In this document: one piece after another, positions 36,827-56,184 of the stretch
Position numbering within the stretch: the stretch's first letter is position 1
Layout of the letters: each line of letters begins with the position of its first letter
Virus record (IMG/VR): IMGVR_UViG_3300034152_001291
Span: 1-64,000 of that record
DNA: 64,000 nt
Source: a virus
Direction: 5' to 3' (one strand)
Notes under the pieces: model-generated
What the model saw: the letters and a program-made list of their open reading frames with translations, nothing else
Told to the model about the DNA's origin: nothing
Databases searched by the model: none
Translations under genes and position numbers: made by a program

Positions 36827-38176
36827 ATGGCGCGATCTGTCATCTTCGTGAACAACAGCGGCACCGACTGGGATCTTCCCGGTCTCGGGGGCCGTATCGT
36901 CCCGGCCGCCGGCACTCTCGACGTCACCAACGAGATCACCGACGACGAATTGATCGCCGCGCTCCAGAACCCGCTCGCCGGGATCGTGTTCGCGGCCGAT
37001 CGCTTCCTGCGCGTCAACGGCGTGGACTGGACACAGGCGCAGTCCGAGAACTACGGGAACCAGGCCGACCCTACGGCCACTCCGGCGGCGAACCACGCGC
37101 TGGGGGGCACTCAGCACGAGACCGACACGCTTGCCAACCTCAACGCCAAGATCAGCGACGACGATGTCCAAGGCACCTCTCAGAAAGGAGCGGCGAACGG
37201 TTACGCTTCTCTGGGTGCAGCCGCGGAGGTTCCTAACATCGAACTTCCGGGCCACCCTGACTTCCACGAGGCCGGAGGAAAGGGCGAGATCAGCATCTCT
37301 GGATTGGCGGGCGTGGCTGGAGATCCGCAGGTTCCTCAGGCCCACGCCCCCAATCATGAAGGTGGATCCGACCCCATCTCTCCCGCAGGAATAGGAGCCG
37401 AGTCGGCGTTCTCCAAGAATACGGCCTTCAACAAGAACTTCGGGTCAGGCGCGGGAACGGTGTGTGAAGGGGATGACGCCCGGCTTTCCGACGCTCGCGA
37501 TCCCACGGCTCACCCGCTCGCTTCCGGTGCGGGGCCGCACACGGGCGATCTCCCCTGGAGCGAACTCAACAAGACTGGCTCCAGCCTCGCCGATCTCGCC
37601 ACCCGAGCGCACGCGAACCTCACGGGGGTCGGCGCGGACGATCACCACAACCGGCAGCACGCCCTGGACAGCGGCTCGGATCACACAGGCGCGATTACGG
37701 ATGCCCAGCATGGCTCTCGTGGCGGGAGCGCCCTTCACTCCGCCGCCACTCCGAGCGTCAACGGGTTCATGTCCTCGGCGGACAAGACGAAACTGGACGC
37801 TTTTGGGACGCCCCAGCAGGCCAGCGCCACGAGCAATGCTACCACGTCCAGCGGCGGGGACGTGCTGATGGCCGGGATGACCCTGACGCCCGGCGCGGGC
37901 AACTACATCGTCAACTTCAGCACGTCGCTGAACATCAATGCCAGCAACCAGACCGGGTTCATCTCGGTGTATGTCAACGGCGTTCAGGTGACCCACACGG
38001 AGCGTAGATATGCCAGCCCGGGTTTCGTCGGAGCCCAGCTGATCATCCCGATCTCCGTCTGCGCCTACATCACCGGAGTCGGCGCGGGACAGGCCGTGGA
38101 GATTCGGTGGCGCAGCACCGGCGGCGCGACTCTCACGGTGCCCCAGAGGACCCTCGTTCTTCAGAAGGTGATGTAA
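36827..38176 (+). CDS. tail fibre-like protein
   Basis: KGAANGYASL, GTVCEGDDARLSDAR, GFMSSADKTKLD and His-rich repeats typical of phage fibres. Confidence 0.75.
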   Translation: MARSVIFVNNSGTDWDLPGLGGRIVPAAGTLDVTNEITDDELIAALQNPLAGIVFAADRFLRVNGVDWTQAQSENYGNQADPTATPAANHALGGTQHETDTLANLNAKISDDDVQGTSQKGAANGYASLGAAAEVPNIELPGHPDFHEAGGKGEISISGLAGVAGDPQVPQAHAPNHEGGSDPISPAGIGAESAFSKNTAFNKNFGSGAGTVCEGDDARLSDARDPTAHPLASGAGPHTGDLPWSELNKTGSSLADLATRAHANLTGVGADDHHNRQHALDSGSDHTGAITDAQHGSRGGSALHSAATPSVNGFMSSADKTKLDAFGTPQQASATSNATTSSGGDVLMAGMTLTPGAGNYIVNFSTSLNINASNQTGFISVYVNGVQVTHTERRYASPGFVGAQLIIPISVCAYITGVGAGQAVEIRWRSTGGATLTVPQRTLVLQKVM

Positions 38177-42521: not shown

Positions 42522-42790
42522 CGCTCGGCGCGGCGGGCGCCGGGCTGGGGATCGGCGGGGGGCTTGCCTCCCATCTCAGGAAGTACCGGGCTCAGAAGAA
42601 GGAGTGGCTCGCAGGACGGGCCAGTCCTCCCATCCACCCCAAGAGCGTCAAGGTCTGGGATTACCTCAGGCGTCCTTCCATGATCACGCCGAGCCTGGCC
42701 CGTCGCATCATGGGCGGGGCCGCCGCCGGGGCCGGGACCGCTCTCGCCTTGAATGAGATCCTCAAGCGTCTAAAGAAGCGCAAGAAATGA
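42338..42790 (+). CDS. putative virion protein with GFAEEIQKIA leader and two glycine-zipper segments
   Basis: GAGG RBS; LGAAGAGLGIGGGLA, GGAAAGAGTALA; stop overlaps the RNAP start. Confidence 0.7.
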   Translation: MGHQSSFAFRGFAEEIQKIADWREEVLGDGVRSDAQEVLPEEGGAQEKIARKKKKEEDGALTLGAAGAGLGIGGGLASHLRKYRAQKKEWLAGRASPPIHPKSVKVWDYLRRPSMITPSLARRIMGGAAAGAGTALALNEILKRLKKRKK

Positions 42791-45700
42791 TCAACGCCGA
42801 CCAGCAGTTTCCGGAGATGATGAAGCGGGTGGAGAACGCGATCTCCCGCGCTTTTCCCATCGAGTCCAAGCGGCACGTCATGGACGTCCGGAACCTGCGT
42901 TGGAAGAACTTCGGGCCTTCGATCCGGGACAACATCCGGCTTCAGAAAGAGTTCAAGAACAAGGACAAGACCCTCTCCGCCGACCTGGTCGGGGACGTGA
43001 GGATCCGGTCGAGAGCGGGGAGGGTGGTCGACACCAAGCCCGGCATGGTGCTCGTCACCCTCCCTCACATTACCAACCGGGCCTCCTACATCGTCAACGG
43101 CCACGAGGTGCAGACGGTGAACCAGCTCCGGCTGCGCCCGGGCCCCTACTCGAGGTTCACCTCCGACGACAACACGGAGACCTTCATCAATGCGGCGGGC
43201 GGAGGTTATAAGATCATCTTCAACCGCCAGACGGGCGTGCTCCGCTTGAAGTCCGGCTCCTCATTCTTCTACCTCTACCCGATCCTGAAGAGCCTCGGCG
43301 TCACGGACGCGCAAATGAAGTCGGCGTGGGGTGGCGATATCTTCACCGCTAACAAGGCGCACGACAAGAGCGATCAGGTTACGCGCCTCTACCGGAACAT
43401 GCGTCCTTACGCCGAGATCCCGGAGGATCCGGAGGAGCTGTCCACCGCCGTCGACACCTTCTTTCGTTCGAAGCAGCTCGACCCGAAGATCTCCAAGATC
43501 ACGATGGGGAAGGAATACGATCGGATCTCTCCCGACCTTCTTCTCCGGTCCAGCGGGAAGGCGATCGACCTGGCCAAGGGCAGCGTGGAGATGGACGACA
43601 CCGAGTCGCTCGCTTTCAAGTCCATCCACAGCGTCGAGGATTTCATCCCCGAGAGAATCGAGAAGGCCATCCCGAGCGTGAAGCGCGCGATCCAGTTCAA
43701 GATGGACAGGGCCCCCAAGATCTCGAGCCTTCTCTCTCCCGCGTCCTTCTCCAATCCCGTGATCGATTGGTTCATCACGAGCGAGTTCACCCGCTACTCG
43801 GACCAGCAGAATCCCGTGGACATGGCGTCGACGAGCCAGCTAACGACCACCATGGGAGAGGGAGGAATTCGAAGCGCCCACGCCGTGACCGACCAGGTGC
43901 GCATGGTTCACCCCTCCCAGATGGGTTTCTTGGATCCCATTCACAGCCCGGAGGGTGGTCGGATCGGTGTGACGGGGCACCTCACGATCGGAGCGGAGAA
44001 GAAGGGCGACAGCCTCTACACCAAGGTCATCGACGCGAAGACCGGCCGCCAGGTCTCGAAGAGCGCTCAGGACCTCGAGAACGCGGTCATCGCCTTCAAT
44101 GACCAGTACGACCTGACTGGGGACCGGCCACGTCCCTTGAAGCCGAGGGTGGAGGTCCGGGCAAAGGGGAAAATTCAGATTGTTCCAGCGTCGCAGGTCG
44201 AGTACGTCTTCAGGGATCCCAGGTCGTTCTTCTCGGTCACGTCGAACGCGATTCCCTTCCTCCACAACAACAACCCCAACCGCGGGCAGATGGCGGACCG
44301 CCACATCGAGCAGACCGTCCCCCTGACCGATCCGGACAGTCCCGTGGTTCAATCCAAGTTTCAAGGCAAGGAGGGCTTCGACGACTTCTTCGGCCGGAAC
44401 GTGAGCATCCAGTCCCCGGTGGATGGGACGGTCACCCTGGTTCGGAACGACCGGCTCAAGATCCGGGGAGACGACGGAAAGATGTACCTGGCCTACCTTC
44501 ACTACCAGTACCCCCTGAACGGAGGTTCGTTCCTCACGGACAGGCCGACCGTGAAGGCGGGGGACCGCGTCAAGAAAGGGCAGGTCATCGCGGAGAACAA
44601 CTTCTCGAAGGGAGGGGCGCTGGCTCTCGGCAAGACGCTCAGGACAGCTTACGTTCCTTACAAGGGCTACAACTTCGAGGACGGGGTGGTCATCTCCCAG
44701 GCCGCCGCGAGGAAGCTGACTTCCGAGCACCAGTATCAGCTCAGGCTCGACATCGACAGGAACACCAGGGTGGGGCTCGACATCTTCCTCGCGCACTTCC
44801 CGGACGAGATCGTGAACATCGATCGGGCCAAGTACGATCGGGACGGGATAGTCAGGAAGGGAAGCCGGGTCACCAAGGATGAGATCCTGGTCCCGGCCGT
44901 GTCCCAGACCGAGGTCAGCGAAGAATTCGACTACGCCCGTCTTCACAAGTCGCTGAAGAAGCCGTGGCGCAACGCCTCCATCGTGTGGGAGAGCGACTTT
45001 CCGGGTGAGGTCGTGGACGTCGTGAAGACCTCGAAATTCATCAAGGTGTTTCTTCGAACGGAGGAAGCTGCGCAGGTGGGCGACAAGGTCTCCCAGCGAT
45101 CAGGCGGGAAGGGAATCATCGTCAACATACTCCCGGATAATGAGATGCTCCAAGGAGAGGACGGGAAGCCGGTGGATGTCCTCTTCAATCCCGGGGGCGT
45201 CACGGGGCGCGTGAATCCGGGACAGCTCTACGAAGCGAGCATGGGGAAGGTCTCGAGGAAGACCGGCGAGAAGTACCTGGTGGAGAACTTCTCTCCGGAG
45301 TCGTCTCTCGACCGCGTTCAGGCGGAGATGCGAAAAGCGGGCGTCAAGGATACCGAGACGCTCACGGATCCCGGCACGGGGAACAAGATCAACGATATTT
45401 TTACGGGCGACATTCACTTCCTGAAGCTCCAGCATCAGGTTCGGAACAAGTTCAAGGCGAGAGGCCTCGGCAGTTACACGACGGACGAGCAGCCGAGCAA
45501 GGTCGGGAAGGAGTCGGCACAGAACATCGGATCTGGGGAGCTCTACGCTCTTCTCGCCTCGGGAGCCATGCACTTCCTGAAAGACACGACGACACTGAAG
45601 TCGCAGTCGAATCCTGAATACTGGCGCGCCCTTCAGACCGGCCTCCCCACGCCGCCCCCGCAGCAGCCTTTCATTCTCGACAAGTTCGTCACGAGTCTGG

Positions 45701-48700
45701 AGGGGGCCGGCGTCAACCTGGCCCGCGAAGGATCGAAGGTGAAGGCCCTCCCCATGACGGACAAGGACGTGGAGTCCCGGTCCAGGGGAGAGATCAAGAA
45801 CTTCACCGTGGTCCGGGCGTCAGACTTGAAGCCGGAGGCCGGAGGGCTCTTCGACAAGGGGATCACGGGAGGCTACGACGGGGTCCACTGGGCCCATATC
45901 GATCTCGAGACCCCCATGCCGAGCCCGCTCATGGAGAAGGCCCTGATCGCGGTCGCGGGCCTGAAGCCCGCCGAGTACAAGTCGATCATGCGAGGCACGC
46001 TCTTCGTGACGAGGGACGGGCACTTGACGACGGACTCGAAGAAGGGGGCGCCGGCGGGAGAAGGCCTGAAGATTCTCCTCGATAAGGTCAATGTGGAGAG
46101 GGATCTCGAGGATACGATTTCCCAGATCCGGATCGCCCGGGGCAGCAGGCTGGACGACCTGAACAAGAAGCGTCGCTACCTCCAGGCCCTGAAATCGTCG
46201 AAGCTCACGCCCTCCGAGGCCTACATCACAAGCAAGGTCCCCGTGATCCCGCCCAAGTTCAGGCCGGTCTACCCCCTGCCGGACGGGTCTCTGAACGTGG
46301 CCGACCCTAATCACGGGTATCGTGAAGTCCTGATGATCAACAATCAGCTGAAGGCGCTGAGGAATCAGGGTGTCGACAACAGGAATCTCGCTTCCATGCG
46401 GGCGGATCTCTACGGGGCTCTCCAGGGGTTGACGGGCATGACGGAGCCTCTCACCAGGGCCAAGAACTTCAGGGGCTTCGTCTCGACCATCAAGGGGAGG
46501 TCGAACAAGAGAGGGCTGTTCCAGGGAAAGGTGGTGAAGAGGCCCCAGGACCTCTCCGGGCGCTCTACGGTGATCCCCGATCCGAATCTCGGAATCGACG
46601 AGGTGGGTCTTCCGGCCGACATGGCGCTGACCATCTACAAGCCGTTTTTGGTGCGCCGTCTCGTGGGCATGGGCTACAAGCCCACCGAGGCCATGGATCT
46701 CGTCGACAAGAAAGATCCGAAGGTTTTGGACATCCTGAAGGACGAGGCGGCGGAGCGCCCGGTCTGGATGAATCGCGCGCCGAGCCTTCACAAATTCAGC
46801 ATGCTTCCCTTCAGGCCGAGGATCGCTCCCGGCAAGGCGATCCAGGTCAATCCCCTCATCGTGAAGGGGTTCAACATGGACTTCAACGGGGATTCCTGCT
46901 CGCCCGATACCGTCGTTTACGTTCGGCGTGTCTCCGATAGAACATTATTCGTGGGGTCTTTCGATGAATTTGTGAAGAACGAGCTCTTGCCTGGAATCGA
47001 TGACGCCGGTTTGGAGGAGATAGCCGGGGGCGTCACTGGAATTCTTGAGTTCGCTGATTCAGCTTATGAGGTCCTGGGACTTTTCGAGGGGAAAATTGCG
47101 TGGCAGCCTTTGAACCAGATAACGATACACACATCTCACGGGCCATGCTTTGAAGTCTCGTTCAAATCCGGTGACACTTTGATCTGTTCCGAGCACCACA
47201 ATCTATTCGGGGTGGATCCAGATACCCTCGATCTTTTCACTTTCAAAACCGAAAAGCATGAGGAGTATCCCGACGTTGTCGTCCCTATCGTCTCATTGTG
47301 GGATTCCGAACCGGTCGGCAACGCAAGGATTCCGGCCCTGGACTCGGGCAGGCGGCTGGATACTGTCCCTGTCGATGACGATTTGGCCTGGTGGACGGGA
47401 GTCTATGTTGGGGAGGGAAGCCTGACCGGACGGAATGATATCGTATCCTGTTCGTCTTCCGATCCGGAGATGCTTGGCCAGATCAAGATCGCTATGGAAC
47501 GCATTGGGCCCGTGTGGGAAACAGATAACCAGGTGAGGATAACAAGTAAAGATCTCTTCAAGGCTTTTGAGAGTGCTTTCGGAAAGGGAAGCCAGAACAA
47601 GAAGTTTCCGGATTTCGTCTTCGAGATGCCTCCGGCGCTTCGGTTGCAGGCCGTTGTCGGTTTCCTCGACGCGGAAGCACAGGCCGCATTTGATATCAAC
47701 GGTCGTCCATTCTTGACGGTAGAATTGACGAGTCTCCAGGCTCTCCGGCAAGTATCCATGTTGATGAGAAGCGTAGGCATCCGGAGCTCCATAAGAGAAG
47801 GTCGACCGGAAAAAACCGGAAGGAAGAAGACCTGGATTCTTTACGTTGAGAAATCCGGATTCGGGCTTCTTCCAAACTTTCGATCAAAATCGAAAAAAGA
47901 ATGGCAGGCTAAAGTTCGAAACTTTTCTGAAATCTCCAGAAGTCGGATGGATATGGTTCCAATGTTCGATTCGGTCTTCTCGGCTCTCACGAAGAAAGGC
48001 CTGGAGAATAGGACAGAGGATAAAAAGACGCGGGCCGAACGCAGAGCGTGGGCGAAAGAGTATGCTTCCAGCCATGGAGTTCCTTTCGGGCCTGTATCGA
48101 AAAGCGATCTTGTCGGGCATTCTTTGATAACACGTCGAGCCGCGTTCAGAATTGCGGCCTGGTACGGTCCATTCGAGAAGGATTCTCTTCTCGACAAGTG
48201 GAGATCCCTGGTGGAGAACACTTCCGTATCGTACACGGAGATTTCTTGCCGAGAAATCGACCGGCTCCCGATCCTTTACGATTTCAGCGTTCCTCCGAAT
48301 GAAGCCTTTGTTGTCAACTCTGGAATCGTGACGCACAACACCGTCGGCATCCATGTCCCCGTCAGCGAGGAGGCCCGGCAGGAGGCTTTCCAGAAGCTTC
48401 CGTCCAAGCAGCTGCTCTCGGTCCGGGAGCAGTCGGCGGTCCACACTCCGTCGAAGGAATATGTCCTCGGTCTCTACCTCATGACGCATCCCAAAGGAAA
48501 GACTGTCACGGCGAAGTCTCGTACCGACATGATGGCCCAGTATCAGGCCAAGAAGATCAAGGTGAACACGCCCGTGAAGATAGGGTCGGATATCTGGACG
48601 CCGGGCCAGGCTCTGGTCGACGATGTCTTTCCCGTAGGGCTGAAGCCCGGCAACAGGGTGATGGACAAGAGGACGGTGGAGACCCTTCTCTTCGAGGTCG

Positions 48701-50247
48701 CCAGAAAGGAGCCCAACAAGGCCGGTGACGTCATCAGCAGGATCAAGGACCTCGGCGCTCATTTCGTGACCGAGATCGGCTACTCCTTCGGGCTCGAGGA
48801 CCTCAAGTTCGACTACAAGAAACGCGAGCAGATCCTGGATGAGGCCGAGAAGAAAACGCCCAAGATCGGTTTCGAGAAGGCCTACGGGCAGGCTCTTGAC
48901 AAGATGAACAGCGAGATTCGGAAGACGAAAGGGAATCGGGTCGTCGAAGGCAGCATCACTTCGGGAGCTTTCGGCAAGGCCGACATGGTCACGCAGATGA
49001 TTGCCACGCCCGTGGCGGTCCGGGACCACAAGAATGAGATCATCCCGGTCCCTATCAAACGATCGTTTGCGGAAGGGCACGGAATTTCGAGCTACTGGGC
49101 AACGGCGCCGGGGGCTCGCAAGGGTCTGATCGAGAAGGGCCTCGGCACGGCGGAGACGGGAGCGCTGAGCAAGCGCCTGATCAACACCACCGTCACGCAG
49201 ACAATCAGCATGAAGGACTGCGGCACGACCGAGGGAACTCTGATGCCGATCGAGTCCCGCGACGCGCTGGACCACTTCGTCGCCGACGGCCCGTTCAAGA
49301 AGGAGGCGATCACGTCCGAGCTCGTGACACAGATGAAGCGACGCGGCCTGAAGCAGGTGCTCGTTCGGTCTCCGCTGAAGTGCGAGGCTCCCCAGGGAGT
49401 CTGCGCGATGTGCTTCGGCCTGCTGGAAAACGGGAAGGTCCCGCCGATCGGCTACAACGTGGGCGTCCTTTCGGGCCAGGCCGTCTCGGAACCCATGACC
49501 CAGCTCACTCTGAGGGCCTTCCATACGGGCGGAGCAATGGCGCAGAAGGCGGTCGGCTTCGACCGGATCAAACAGATTTTCGAACTCCCGGAGAATCTCC
49601 CTGGACGCGCCCCGCTCGCTCAGACCACGGGCAAGGTCGAATCGATCGACCCGGCTCCCGGCGGGGGTTGGATCGTGGTCATCGGGGGTGTGGACCATTT
49701 CGTGCCTCAGGAGCGCGGGCTCGGGGTGAAGAGAGGCGACAGGGTCTTGGCGGGTCAGCAGATCTCCAAGACCGGGGTCATTCGCCCTCAGGAACTACTC
49801 GCAGCCACGAACGACATCGATAAGGTTCGTGGCCAGATGGTGAAGGATCTCAACAAGGAGTTCGGGACGGGTGGTGTCCATATTCAGCGAAAGCTCCTCG
49901 AGACCGTCGTGCGCCCGATGACTGATCGAGCTGAGGTGACGGACGCCGGCGACGGAGAAAAGAAGGGCTACTTCAAGGGGGACGTCGTCGCCATAAACAA
50001 GCTCGAGAAGACGAACAAGGAGATCCGTAAGGCCGGCGGGAAACCGATCGAATATCAGCCCACTCTTTTGTCCATCCGCGTCGCCCCGTATCATAGCGGC
50101 GACTTCATCGGGAAGCTGATGTTCGAGCGTCCTCACGAGACGATCTCGGCCGCCCCGAGGATCGGCGCCGAGGCGGATGTGGTGAAGGGACACCCGATCA
50201 CGCGCCACACGTTCGGTCGCTACTTTGGAGCTCGGAATAAGAAATGA
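42787..50247 (+). CDS. single-chain DNA-directed RNA polymerase, fused beta + beta' subunits, intein-containing
   Basis: beta: SPEG, IPFL.N...NR, GYNFEDG, GDK...GGKG, NP.GV.GR.N.GQ, KL.H.V; beta': PVIPP.FRP, DLSGRS, NRAPSLH, NMDFNGD, GARKGL, DCGT/RSPLKC/CAMC, EPMTQLTLRAFHTGG. Confidence 0.95.
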   Translation: MINADQQFPEMMKRVENAISRAFPIESKRHVMDVRNLRWKNFGPSIRDNIRLQKEFKNKDKTLSADLVGDVRIRSRAGRVVDTKPGMVLVTLPHITNRASYIVNGHEVQTVNQLRLRPGPYSRFTSDDNTETFINAAGGGYKIIFNRQTGVLRLKSGSSFFYLYPILKSLGVTDAQMKSAWGGDIFTANKAHDKSDQVTRLYRNMRPYAEIPEDPEELSTAVDTFFRSKQLDPKISKITMGKEYDRISPDLLLRSSGKAIDLAKGSVEMDDTESLAFKSIHSVEDFIPERIEKAIPSVKRAIQFKMDRAPKISSLLSPASFSNPVIDWFITSEFTRYSDQQNPVDMASTSQLTTTMGEGGIRSAHAVTDQVRMVHPSQMGFLDPIHSPEGGRIGVTGHLTIGAEKKGDSLYTKVIDAKTGRQVSKSAQDLENAVIAFNDQYDLTGDRPRPLKPRVEVRAKGKIQIVPASQVEYVFRDPRSFFSVTSNAIPFLHNNNPNRGQMADRHIEQTVPLTDPDSPVVQSKFQGKEGFDDFFGRNVSIQSPVDGTVTLVRNDRLKIRGDDGKMYLAYLHYQYPLNGGSFLTDRPTVKAGDRVKKGQVIAENNFSKGGALALGKTLRTAYVPYKGYNFEDGVVISQAAARKLTSEHQYQLRLDIDRNTRVGLDIFLAHFPDEIVNIDRAKYDRDGIVRKGSRVTKDEILVPAVSQTEVSEEFDYARLHKSLKKPWRNASIVWESDFPGEVVDVVKTSKFIKVFLRTEEAAQVGDKVSQRSGGKGIIVNILPDNEMLQGEDGKPVDVLFNPGGVTGRVNPGQLYEASMGKVSRKTGEKYLVENFSPESSLDRVQAEMRKAGVKDTETLTDPGTGNKINDIFTGDIHFLKLQHQVRNKFKARGLGSYTTDEQPSKVGKESAQNIGSGELYALLASGAMHFLKDTTTLKSQSNPEYWRALQTGLPTPPPQQPFILDKFVTSLEGAGVNLAREGSKVKALPMTDKDVESRSRGEIKNFTVVRASDLKPEAGGLFDKGITGGYDGVHWAHIDLETPMPSPLMEKALIAVAGLKPAEYKSIMRGTLFVTRDGHLTTDSKKGAPAGEGLKILLDKVNVERDLEDTISQIRIARGSRLDDLNKKRRYLQALKSSKLTPSEAYITSKVPVIPPKFRPVYPLPDGSLNVADPNHGYREVLMINNQLKALRNQGVDNRNLASMRADLYGALQGLTGMTEPLTRAKNFRGFVSTIKGRSNKRGLFQGKVVKRPQDLSGRSTVIPDPNLGIDEVGLPADMALTIYKPFLVRRLVGMGYKPTEAMDLVDKKDPKVLDILKDEAAERPVWMNRAPSLHKFSMLPFRPRIAPGKAIQVNPLIVKGFNMDFNGDSCSPDTVVYVRRVSDRTLFVGSFDEFVKNELLPGIDDAGLEEIAGGVTGILEFADSAYEVLGLFEGKIAWQPLNQITIHTSHGPCFEVSFKSGDTLICSEHHNLFGVDPDTLDLFTFKTEKHEEYPDVVVPIVSLWDSEPVGNARIPALDSGRRLDTVPVDDDLAWWTGVYVGEGSLTGRNDIVSCSSSDPEMLGQIKIAMERIGPVWETDNQVRITSKDLFKAFESAFGKGSQNKKFPDFVFEMPPALRLQAVVGFLDAEAQAAFDINGRPFLTVELTSLQALRQVSMLMRSVGIRSSIREGRPEKTGRKKTWILYVEKSGFGLLPNFRSKSKKEWQAKVRNFSEISRSRMDMVPMFDSVFSALTKKGLENRTEDKKTRAERRAWAKEYASSHGVPFGPVSKSDLVGHSLITRRAAFRIAAWYGPFEKDSLLDKWRSLVENTSVSYTEISCREIDRLPILYDFSVPPNEAFVVNSGIVTHNTVGIHVPVSEEARQEAFQKLPSKQLLSVREQSAVHTPSKEYVLGLYLMTHPKGKTVTAKSRTDMMAQYQAKKIKVNTPVKIGSDIWTPGQALVDDVFPVGLKPGNRVMDKRTVETLLFEVARKEPNKAGDVISRIKDLGAHFVTEIGYSFGLEDLKFDYKKREQILDEAEKKTPKIGFEKAYGQALDKMNSEIRKTKGNRVVEGSITSGAFGKADMVTQMIATPVAVRDHKNEIIPVPIKRSFAEGHGISSYWATAPGARKGLIEKGLGTAETGALSKRLINTTVTQTISMKDCGTTEGTLMPIESRDALDHFVADGPFKKEAITSELVTQMKRRGLKQVLVRSPLKCEAPQGVCAMCFGLLENGKVPPIGYNVGVLSGQAVSEPMTQLTLRAFHTGGAMAQKAVGFDRIKQIFELPENLPGRAPLAQTTGKVESIDPAPGGGWIVVIGGVDHFVPQERGLGVKRGDRVLAGQQISKTGVIRPQELLAATNDIDKVRGQMVKDLNKEFGTGGVHIQRKLLETVVRPMTDRAEVTDAGDGEKKGYFKGDVVAINKLEKTNKEIRKAGGKPIEYQPTLLSIRVAPYHSGDFIGKLMFERPHETISAAPRIGAEADVVKGHPITRHTFGRYFGARNKK
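46894..48339 (+). mobile_element. intein with LAGLIDADG homing endonuclease (482 aa) in RNAP
   Basis: Starts SCSPDTVV, block B CSEHH, WTGVYVGEG and VVGFLDAEA, ends LYDFSV...IVTHN followed by Thr; visibly lower GC. Confidence 0.92.
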
Positions 50248-54378: not shown

Positions 54379-56184
54379 ATGAAAATCTCCTACGAAGATC
54401 CCGTCTCCAGCGGAATCCGCCGCGCGATCAATCCGGACAAGTTCCGGGTATGGGACACCCCTTCCTGTTCGGGAGACCTGGTCCAGGAGGGGGTGGTCGA
54501 TGTCGCCAAGGATTTCGAGTTCGAGCAGGCCTTCGAGGATAATGAGATCCTCCTCGAGGGGAAATACTCGGACTTCGCCCAGCACCTCGTGACGATCAAC
54601 CGGAAGCCCTTGTCTCTCGAGGGGCGGGAATACCTGAAGCCGATCTACGACCAGTACGAGGAGTTTCCCCGGGGATCGAAAGACATCGTCCTTGTCGCGG
54701 GAAGGCAGGTCGAGAAGTCCAGCTCGATGGCGTCCATTGCCATCACGCGCTGCTGTGTGATCCCCTCCCATACCGTGCTGGTCATCCAGCCCCGGGACGC
54801 CCAGACCAAGATCTTCAGCCAGCAGCGCTTCGACCCGATGGCCACCGACTCCGAGGTCCTTCAGGAGCTTTTCCTCGGGACCAAGAACGTGTGGCAGGTC
54901 GGCGCCAAGATCTTCAACAACGGTTCGGTCGCCAACTTCAAGTCCTGCTTCTATTCGGCGGACCCCATCCGGGGCATCACGTCGGGCGATCTCTTCATCG
55001 ACGAGTTGCAGGACGTGATATCGGACAACATCCCCGTTCTCGAGGAGTGCCAGTCCCACATCTTCCCCGAGGACCGGTTCAACCTCTACGCCGGGACGCC
55101 GAAGACGACCTCCAACACCCTGAACCTCCACTACAAGGAGACATGCCAGTTCGAGTGGATGGTGAAGTGCCAGGGCTGCAAGCACTACAACTTTCTCGAT
55201 GCGAAGGTCATCGGGAAGCACCACTACATCTGCTCGAGGTGCGGGAAGCAGATCTATCCTCTCCTGCACGGGGAGTGGGTCGCGATGCGCCCGAGCAAGA
55301 TCGACGATCGGTGGGGATTTCGCGTGTCGCAGATCATGGTCCCCTTCATGCGTCACAGCGAGGTCCTCAACAAGATGGAGAACCCGAACATCCCGACACG
55401 GGTTTTCCACAACGAGGTCCTCGGCCTCTCTTACGACGTGGGGCAGCTTCTCCTGACGGAGGGGGACATCCTCCGTCGTTGCGAGCCCAGGGTCCCCGAC
55501 ACGCACGAGACGATTCACAAGAGGAGGGATGTCTTCCTCTGCGCCGGGGTGGATCACGGGACCGGGGACTTCGCGGCAGGGGGCATGACGGATCTGGGTG
55601 TGGCCCGGAAGGCCTCCACCCGCCCCTCGTTCACTGCGATAGCGCTCGGCGGTTTCTGCTCCGACAACAAGTTCAGGATCTTCCGGCTGATCAAGTTCAC
55701 GGGGGAGATGGCGAATCTCGCCCGGCAGCCCGAGTTCATCGACGAGGTCATCCGATCCTATGGGGCGAAGTGGATCATGTCCGACCACGGTTTCGGCGCC
55801 CATACGAACGCCAGACTGGTGTCGGACCATGGCTGGACCCGCGTGGAGGACGAGCTGAATCCCCTTCTCATGGAGTGCGAATACTCGGGGATCCAGAAGA
55901 TTCCCGTGAAGTGGCACTCCCGAGCCTACCGCTACATCGTCCAGCGGAACTTCGCGATCGAGCACACCGTGGACGGGATCAAGAAGGGCGAGATCCTCTT
56001 CTTCAACGAGGGGGAGATGAAGCCCTACCTGGACGACTTCACGACCATGTTCACGGAGTACGATTTCAGGAGCAAGTCGGTTCGTTACGACCACGTCCTG
56101 CCGGACGACTGTTTCCAGGCCGTGGTCTACTGTTATCTGGCCGCCTTGCAGCGGCGGGGGAGGCTCACCCCCAGCTACGGTTAG
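54379..56184 (+). CDS. terL: terminase large subunit
   Basis: Walker A variant AGRQVEKSS, Walker B LFIDE, AGTP, CxxC pairs, nuclease AGVDHG and PDDCFQA. Confidence 0.88.
   Translation: MKISYEDPVSSGIRRAINPDKFRVWDTPSCSGDLVQEGVVDVAKDFEFEQAFEDNEILLEGKYSDFAQHLVTINRKPLSLEGREYLKPIYDQYEEFPRGSKDIVLVAGRQVEKSSSMASIAITRCCVIPSHTVLVIQPRDAQTKIFSQQRFDPMATDSEVLQELFLGTKNVWQVGAKIFNNGSVANFKSCFYSADPIRGITSGDLFIDELQDVISDNIPVLEECQSHIFPEDRFNLYAGTPKTTSNTLNLHYKETCQFEWMVKCQGCKHYNFLDAKVIGKHHYICSRCGKQIYPLLHGEWVAMRPSKIDDRWGFRVSQIMVPFMRHSEVLNKMENPNIPTRVFHNEVLGLSYDVGQLLLTEGDILRRCEPRVPDTHETIHKRRDVFLCAGVDHGTGDFAAGGMTDLGVARKASTRPSFTAIALGGFCSDNKFRIFRLIKFTGEMANLARQPEFIDEVIRSYGAKWIMSDHGFGAHTNARLVSDHGWTRVEDELNPLLMECEYSGIQKIPVKWHSRAYRYIVQRNFAIEHTVDGIKKGEILFFNEGEMKPYLDDFTTMFTEYDFRSKSVRYDHVLPDDCFQAVVYCYLAALQRRGRLTPSYG

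Follow-up and report, generated by a model that had tools for sequence, protein, structure and literature searches.

The D-x-D-G-D aspartates of the catalytic Mg-binding loop are treated as invariant in two-barrel RNA polymerases (RNAPs), and the locus described here raises the question of why a phage RNAP gene encodes Asn in place of the middle one, directly beside an intein. The gene is located in the window, i.e., the whole analyzed stretch of 64,000 nucleotides, which corresponds to positions 1 to 64,000 of the IMG/VR virus record IMGVR_UViG_3300034152_001291 (124.7 kb, rated 63% complete). Judging from comparison with homologous sequences, this residue (Asn1367) is genuinely encoded and is the product of neither an error nor a dying gene. 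At least 28 clusters (50% identity) were found to encode the middle Asn, and only beside one intein. The best overall explanation, in which we place somewhat more trust than doubt, is that the encoded Asn is kept by selection, moves together with a class-1 intein lineage and suits splicing.

Polymerase Gene and Catalytic Loop

The features of the gene on which the question depends were as follows.

42787..50247, + strand: gene of the single-chain (fused beta-beta') phage RNA polymerase precursor (open reading frame (ORF), translation, Pfam, homologues)
46873..46893, + strand: catalytic Mg-binding loop N-M-D-F-N-G-D, residues 1363-1369 (aligned with D-x-D-G-D of 118 of 120 homologues)
46885..46887, + strand: AAC codon of Asn1367, the -3 extein residue, replacing the middle catalytic Asp (sequence, alignment)

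The precursor consisted of 2486 aa, or about 2004 aa once the intein was removed. The order of Pfam domains in the ORF was Rpb2 domains 3 and 6, followed by Rpb1 domains 1, 2, 3, and 5, with LAGLIDADG_3 in addition (Rpb2_3, Rpb2_6, Rpb1_2, and Rpb1_5 above the Pfam cut-offs; Rpb1_1 and Rpb1_3 below them), and this succession of Rpb2 and Rpb1 domains within one ORF indicates that beta and beta' are fused in a single chain. A word-indexed search yielded 453 polymerase homologues, the best 120 of which were aligned and proved to be mostly fused polymerases of about 2000 aa from uncultured phages. Cultured relatives were detected by tblastn in 34 of 50,697 phage records, all with an identity below 60% (23.5-33.7% among the matches listed).

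The motif NMDFNGD, which had been noticed by an earlier sequence-only reading of the window, was found exactly and in frame at 46873-46893 (AAC ATG GAC TTC AAC GGG GAT, i.e., N1363-M-D-F-N1367-G-D1369). The loop as encoded, D-F-N-G-D, thus lacks one of the three aspartates that define the D-x-D-G-D Mg loop. In the alignment, the column of the middle Asp contained Asp in 118 of 120 homologues, and Asn was present only in the window protein and in protein P0105. There were 183 near-invariant columns (conservation of at least 95% in the alignment of 120 homologues), and the window polymerase matched 181 of them, the exceptions being D1367N and R2163H; since the number of such substitutions ranged from 0 to 20 across the family, two is a typical value. 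The Glu-Asp pair and the lysines of the beta part (E631, D632, K767, K775, and K880), the bridge-helix region (G2109, R2111, and G2113), and trigger-loop F2245-H2246 were all among the residues kept, in agreement with what the sequence-only reading had stated about the beta lysines, the bridge helix, and the trigger-loop His.

Residue 2163 (49273-49275), situated about 18 residues past the beta' D-C-G-T motif, is His in the window protein and Arg in 119 of 120 homologues.

Intein at the Loop

Immediately downstream of the loop, the following elements were delimited.

46894..48339, + strand: intein of 482 aa (Ser1370 to Asn1851) with a nested LAGLIDADG homing endonuclease (predicted from alignment with uninterrupted homologues)
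46894..46896, + strand: Ser1 (TCC), the N-terminal splicing nucleophile (Ser in 29 of 30 lineage members, Cys in 1 of 30)
47128..47139, + strand: H-T-S-H, residues 1448-1451, a lineage-specific invariant motif
47188..47199, + strand: block B S-E-H-H, residues 1468-1471, equivalent of T-x-x-H (lineage consensus [ST]-x-H-H-N-F)
47383..47421, + strand: first LAGLIDADG motif, ending in G-E-G-S, approximately residues 1533-1545 (counted from the alignment)
47644..47679, + strand: second LAGLIDADG motif, with D-A-E, approximately residues 1620-1631 (Pfam LAGLIDADG_3 at 1625-1687)
48334..48342, + strand: intein end His1850-Asn1851 and C-extein Thr1852 (+1 nucleophile)

The insert begins with S-C-S-P-D-T, Ser1370 (46894) directly following Asp1369, so that the catalytic motif does abut the splice junction as had been proposed, and it closes with T-H-N ahead of Thr1852. 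Excision of residues 1370-1851 restores the spacing of uninterrupted homologues, in which D-x-D-G-D runs straight into T-x-G-x-H-V-P. The Pfam profile LAGLIDADG_3 matched the intein above its cut-off (31.7 bits), and Intein_splicing matched it at 19.3 bits, below the cut-off of 35.8 bits. A sequence match to PI-PkoII was also found (E-value = 5.8e-10), in which the block-B S-E-H-H fell opposite T-S-G-H of PI-PkoII, in a part of the alignment with low scores. The AlphaFold model of the intein, built on 12 lineage members, had a pLDDT of 85.1 and a pTM of 0.86, and the nearest structures found with it by Foldseek were the TliVMA, PI-PkoII, PI-PfuI, and PI-SceI inteins (E-values from 1.9e-22 to about 1e-10). 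The attributes of class-1 inteins were accordingly found in the insert: an N-terminal nucleophile, the block-B His, His-Asn followed by Thr+1, and HINT and LAGLIDADG folds (the folds by model). It is concluded from the sequence and the model that the insert is a canonical class-1 LAGLIDADG homing intein, for which splicing and homing are predicted.

The base composition of the intein (GC 51.4%; GC at third codon positions (GC3) 57.9%) differed from that of the extein (GC 60.9%; GC3 83.8%), and the intein had the lowest GC among 626 same-length segments of the stretch, which marks it as a probable, fairly recent foreign arrival. The foreign GC and the scatter of the intein on the extein tree (see below) provide indirect support for its putative mobility.

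Association of Asn with One Intein Lineage

A phmmer query consisting of the intein and some 14 flanking residues at either end was run against 1.84 billion cluster representatives. The 27 hits that ranked highest (P0121-P0147, E-value ≤ 5.3e-27) had D-[FYH]-N-G-D, the next residue being Ser in 26 and Cys in 1; below them, starting with a hit at an E-value of 5.7e-21, other intein lineages appeared, with no recognizable loop containing the middle Asn. Together with the window protein, P0105, and L017, these hits make up a lineage in which the middle Asn (D-x-N-G-D) was present in 30 of 30 members. The intein of P0105 starts with S-C and ends with T-H-N, like that of the window. L017, found by a pattern scan of IMG/VR, is a fused polymerase of 2497 aa with N-A-D-F-N-G-D, Ser-Cys, and a 474-aa intein that has T-H-N before Thr. 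All 23 complete lineage inteins, including 20 from the phmmer hits, end with [TSV]-H-N, followed by T (21), C (1), or S (1).

The lineage was also distinguished by histidine-rich motifs. Each of the 30 Asn-bearing proteins had H-[TS]-S-H some 80 residues from the start of the intein; the motif was invariant in the 23 complete inteins that were aligned, and a regular-expression scan detected it at that distance from the loop in 0 of 191 other recognizable loops. The His-His of block B was likewise invariant in the lineage.

Overall, 270 sequences (proteins and ORFs) were classified, a set that the manner of collection had enriched for inteins and Asn variants; a recognizable loop was present in 221 of them, distributed as follows.

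DDD, no insert: 100
DDD, insert other than this intein: 79
DDN (Asn at the third position), insert present: 12
DND (Asn at the middle position), intein of this lineage: 30
Asn at any position, no insert: 0

The middle Asp was thus kept in 179 of 179 loops without such an intein (100 uninterrupted and 79 with other inserts). As far as the compared sequences indicate, Asn and the H-[TS]-S-H intein lineage co-occur without exception in this enriched sample. The comparison of homologues with and without the intein, which the sequence-only reading had recommended, therefore separates them completely: uninterrupted loops all have three aspartates, and the middle Asn is found only with this lineage.

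The association is probably old, since the inteins of the window protein and P0105 are only 26% identical (37% in the extein). Across the lineage, the inteins have diverged to about 26-35% identity. Different codons are used as well: Asn is encoded by AAC in the window and AAT in L017, and Ser1 by TCC and AGC, respectively.

It had also been suggested that the substitution could represent escape from homing, in which case uninterrupted Asn alleles might be expected to occur. This suggestion was not borne out, no uninterrupted allele of the phage type being found: the pattern D-F-N-G-D-x4-H-x-P gave five matches in IMG/VR, none of them an RNAP, and in metagenome contigs it gave no phage-type RNAP among the at least 121 matches listed (at least 120 stretches).

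Two further observations concern the scans for Asn. A further flag raised by a regular expression, in L071, was a chance match. In L115 (9455-9489) and L139 (2226-2260), whose DNA is 100% identical over 6.8 kb, a GC-poor (34%), intron-bearing gene of a eukaryote-type largest subunit has an exon that reads Y-N-A-D-F-N-G-D-E-M, without an intein. This gene, which we take to be Pol III-like, may represent a paralogue, a pseudogene, or a functional enzyme with Asn, and it bears on the question of Asn tolerance.

Distribution of the Asn on the Extein Tree

The extein tree was constructed from 126 sequences and 610 columns, with the motif columns excluded. Of 150 rows, 24 with an occupancy below 70% were omitted, all of them from the Asn lineage (P0123-P0129 and P0131-P0147; fragments or sequences too divergent for a fixed-length alignment). 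The six Asn-bearing tips that remained require six changes on the tree, which is the maximum possible, and 1000 of 1000 label shuffles were as good or better. The nearest neighbor of each of the six carries Asp; the closest relative of the window protein, P0002 (identity of 84.9% over 1994 positions), has DFDGD and no intein.

From these sequence relationships, it is concluded that Asn tracks the intein and not the polymerase backbone. The link between the substitution and the splice junction, raised by the sequence-only reading, is thus upheld, Asn being found only beside this intein lineage and across unrelated backbones. Such scatter implies that the pair of intein and Asn either entered many polymerase genes or was lost as a unit many times, and homing would be the simplest mechanism to account for it.

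Other Inserts at the Site and Comparison with Known Systems

A second intein lineage occupies the same insertion point, directly after the Mg loop of the phage RNAP. It has Cys1, ends with [YW]-Asp before Thr, and is always accompanied by Asn in place of the third Asp, at -1 (D-F-D-G-N; n = 12: P0016, P0037, P0045, P0088, P0101, P0177, P0208, P0233, L018, L023, L025, and L027). The two lineages are thus alike in that a catalytic Asp near the junction is encoded as Asn, but this residue is at -1 in the DFDGN-linked family, with Cys1 and a terminal Asp, and at -3 in the window lineage, which has Ser1, is rich in His, and ends with His-Asn. The window intein shares 16-18% identity with the inteins of the DFDGN-linked group and has neither Asn at -1 nor Cys1 nor the C-terminal Asp by which that group is recognized. 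Inserts of a third group at this site (P0004, P0015, P0055, P0059, P0086, P0096, P0116-P0118, and many phmmer hits) start with Gln, Ala, or Asp, i.e., without a nucleophile, end with Ser-Asn before Thr, and are accompanied by DFDGD. On this sequence evidence, the catalytic loop of the phage polymerase is an intein hot spot for at least three unrelated lineages; because other lineages keep DFDGD, neutralization of one Asp would be one of several lineage-specific solutions.

Among characterized proteins, the class-1 LAGLIDADG inteins TliVMA (7qss), PI-PkoII (2cw7), PI-PfuI (1dq3), and PI-SceI resemble the window intein in the modelled fold (Foldseek E-values from 1.9e-22 to 1e-18, TM-score up to 0.72 on the target), in the N-terminal Ser nucleophile, block-B His, His-Asn end, Thr+1, and two LAGLIDADG motifs, and in insertion at the catalytic site of an essential enzyme. 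The window lineage differs from them by the additional invariant H-[TS]-S-H, which was found in none of the other insert-bearing proteins scanned, and by the substituted catalytic residue of the host that always accompanies it. The catalytic loop of bacterial beta' is NADFDGD. The window polymerase has the same domain order as cellular multisubunit RNAPs, as well as the beta Glu-Asp and lysines, the bridge helix, and the trigger-loop His, whereas its beta and beta' parts form one chain of about 2000 aa and its middle Asp is encoded as Asn.

Partnerships between inteins and exteins are known from Pho RadA, Mtu SufB, and Npu DnaE (+2), in which splicing is tuned by flanking or remote residues of the host; dependence of splicing on host residues near the junction is treated in PMC4031507. 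In those three cases the host keeps its functional residues, whereas in the window the residue linked to the intein takes the place of a universally conserved catalytic ligand. The window case may therefore be viewed, from its sequence, as a putative intein-extein partnership that involves a universally conserved active site. No paper linking an intein to a substituted catalytic Asp of an RNAP was found, supplementary files lying outside the search, nor was any found that describes DFNGD in a polymerase; the passages searched in PMC7824862 contain nothing on fused phage polymerases with inteins.

Explanations for the Encoded Asn

According to the explanation that we favor, the endonuclease would home into D-x-D-G-D alleles that lack an insert, and when the cut is repaired from the copy with the intein, the adjoining codons would be transferred along with the intein. 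Lying 7-9 bases from the junction, the Asn codon would thus travel as part of the mobile element. It would then persist because proper splicing in this lineage would require an uncharged residue at -3. Selection for Asn in the presence of the intein is suggested by the fact that one transition would restore Asp, yet Asp was found in 0 of 30 members despite their divergence and the use of two Asn codons. Flanking extein residues influence the first step of splicing, as stated in PMC4031507, and splicing would be the obvious reason for the Asn, the D-x-D-G-D loop being an acidic, metal-chelating neighbor of the splice junction. Standard splicing would leave the extein unchanged, so that the polymerase product would start as D-F-N-G-D. 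We lean, weakly, toward an enzyme that works with the side-chain oxygen of Asn as the third Mg ligand; slow deamidation of Asn-Gly may restore Asp as a bonus. Tolerance of this kind was preferred because the Asn of the sister lineage, once spliced, precedes Thr, a context of slow deamidation.

Several points weigh against this explanation. Both splicing by the intein and its block by Asp at -3 are deduced from sequence comparison, and other lineages at the same site, some of them with Ser1, coexist with DFDGD, so any requirement at -3 would have to be specific to the lineage. The test for a conversion tract was weak, with four mismatches to P0002 in the 16 junction residues against a mean of 2.4, which is within chance; the -1 Asp codon is GAT, which the intein prefers, yet 27% of extein Asp codons are also GAT, again within chance. 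Furthermore, the 30 cases cannot be counted as independent events if the codon is carried by co-conversion. As regards tolerance itself, none of the 179 loops without such an intein departs from Asp, and the replacement of Asp by Ala or Asn in polymerase metal sites costs orders of magnitude of activity. A compensating change common to the three full-length Asn-bearing polymerases was also sought, and no column shared by them and rare elsewhere was found beyond the Asn itself and a trivial Gln6.

The same findings can be read in favor of a pro-enzyme, in which Asn1367 would be converted to Asp by the succinimide route of Asn-Gly after or during splicing, giving DFDGD as the working loop. This possibility, already raised by the sequence-only reading, deserves serious attention, although we consider it more doubtful than probable. 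The conversion could be spontaneous, for example during storage in the virion if the enzyme is packaged, or either the folded active site or the intein could assist it. It is precisely the Asp preceding Gly that has been replaced, and Asn-Gly is the fastest-deamidating context; the conservation of Asp is absolute in the 179 loops, and the lack of a shared compensating change would follow from a restoration of Asp. The gene lies between a tail-like gene and that of the large terminase (see below), and an enzyme packaged into the particle, which is hypothetical, would have time to convert. Uncatalyzed deamidation of Asn-Gly, however, takes about a day and yields mostly isoaspartate. A match to isoaspartyl methyltransferase (PCMT, PF01135) was absent from the 124.7-kb record, a weak argument given that the record is 63% complete. 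Moreover, the sister lineage leaves its Asn before Thr, a slow context, and deamidation would therefore be no general answer unless catalyzed.

A particular form of this conversion would make the intein itself the catalyst: its His-rich site (H-[TS]-S-H and the block-B His-His) might hold the N-G-D turn and promote deamidation of the Asn at -3 in the precursor. We regard this as unlikely. Were it true, only protein made through the intein would gain DFDGD, and clean loss of the intein would be lethal; the intein would have put, in place of an essential catalytic codon, one that it alone can repair, in an addiction-type lock, and the process would amount to protein-level editing coupled to splicing.

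Pure hitch-hiking, in which a mildly harmful Asn arose once beside the intein and was dragged along by co-conversion without any role in splicing, has a low probability in our estimation. The distance of 7-9 bases between the codon and the insertion point is well within a plausible co-conversion tract, and Asn follows the intein across backbones, as this alternative would have it; yet a single A-to-G transition restores Asp, and Asn was nevertheless retained in 30 of 30 members, with inteins only about 26-35% identical and with both Asn codons in use.

An inactive or decaying polymerase copy, for which the loss of a catalytic Asp would be immaterial, is very improbable: the catalytic triad is indeed incomplete as encoded, but the reading frame is unbroken, the protein deviates from only two of the 183 near-invariant columns, the gene is the sole beta' match in the 124.7-kb record (63% complete), as is that of L017 in its own record (81% complete), and the same state recurs in 30 diverged polymerases. 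A sequencing or assembly error or a private mutation of GAC to AAC, considered by the sequence-only reading on account of the single-base difference, can practically be dismissed, as 29 further proteins, from independent assemblies, share the substitution, in each case together with an intein of this lineage, and one of them, L017, uses a different codon (AAT instead of AAC).

Significance of the Association

With regard to the intein, the favored explanation would mean that a homing intein can carry part of the active site of its host and impose it on each gene that it invades. Considered together with the sister lineage, in which the third Asp is affected, this suggests that inteins have a recurrent means of coping with an acidic metal-binding loop at their junction, or of exploiting it. 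With regard to the polymerase, the consequence depends on the fate of the Asn. If it is tolerated, a polymerase of the multisubunit type would run with an Asp-Asn-Asp metal site, which bears on the strictness of two-metal chemistry. If Asp is regenerated, this would be a post-translational activation of a new kind, coupled to protein splicing.

Genes Surrounding the Polymerase

Two neighboring genes were identified in the window.

36827-38176: protein with weak tail-protein matches
54379-56184: large terminase subunit, 4 kb downstream of the polymerase (PHROG 675, E-value = 8.5e-57; Pfam GpA_ATPase)

With a tail-like gene on one side and the large terminase on the other, the polymerase gene lies inside the structural and packaging region.

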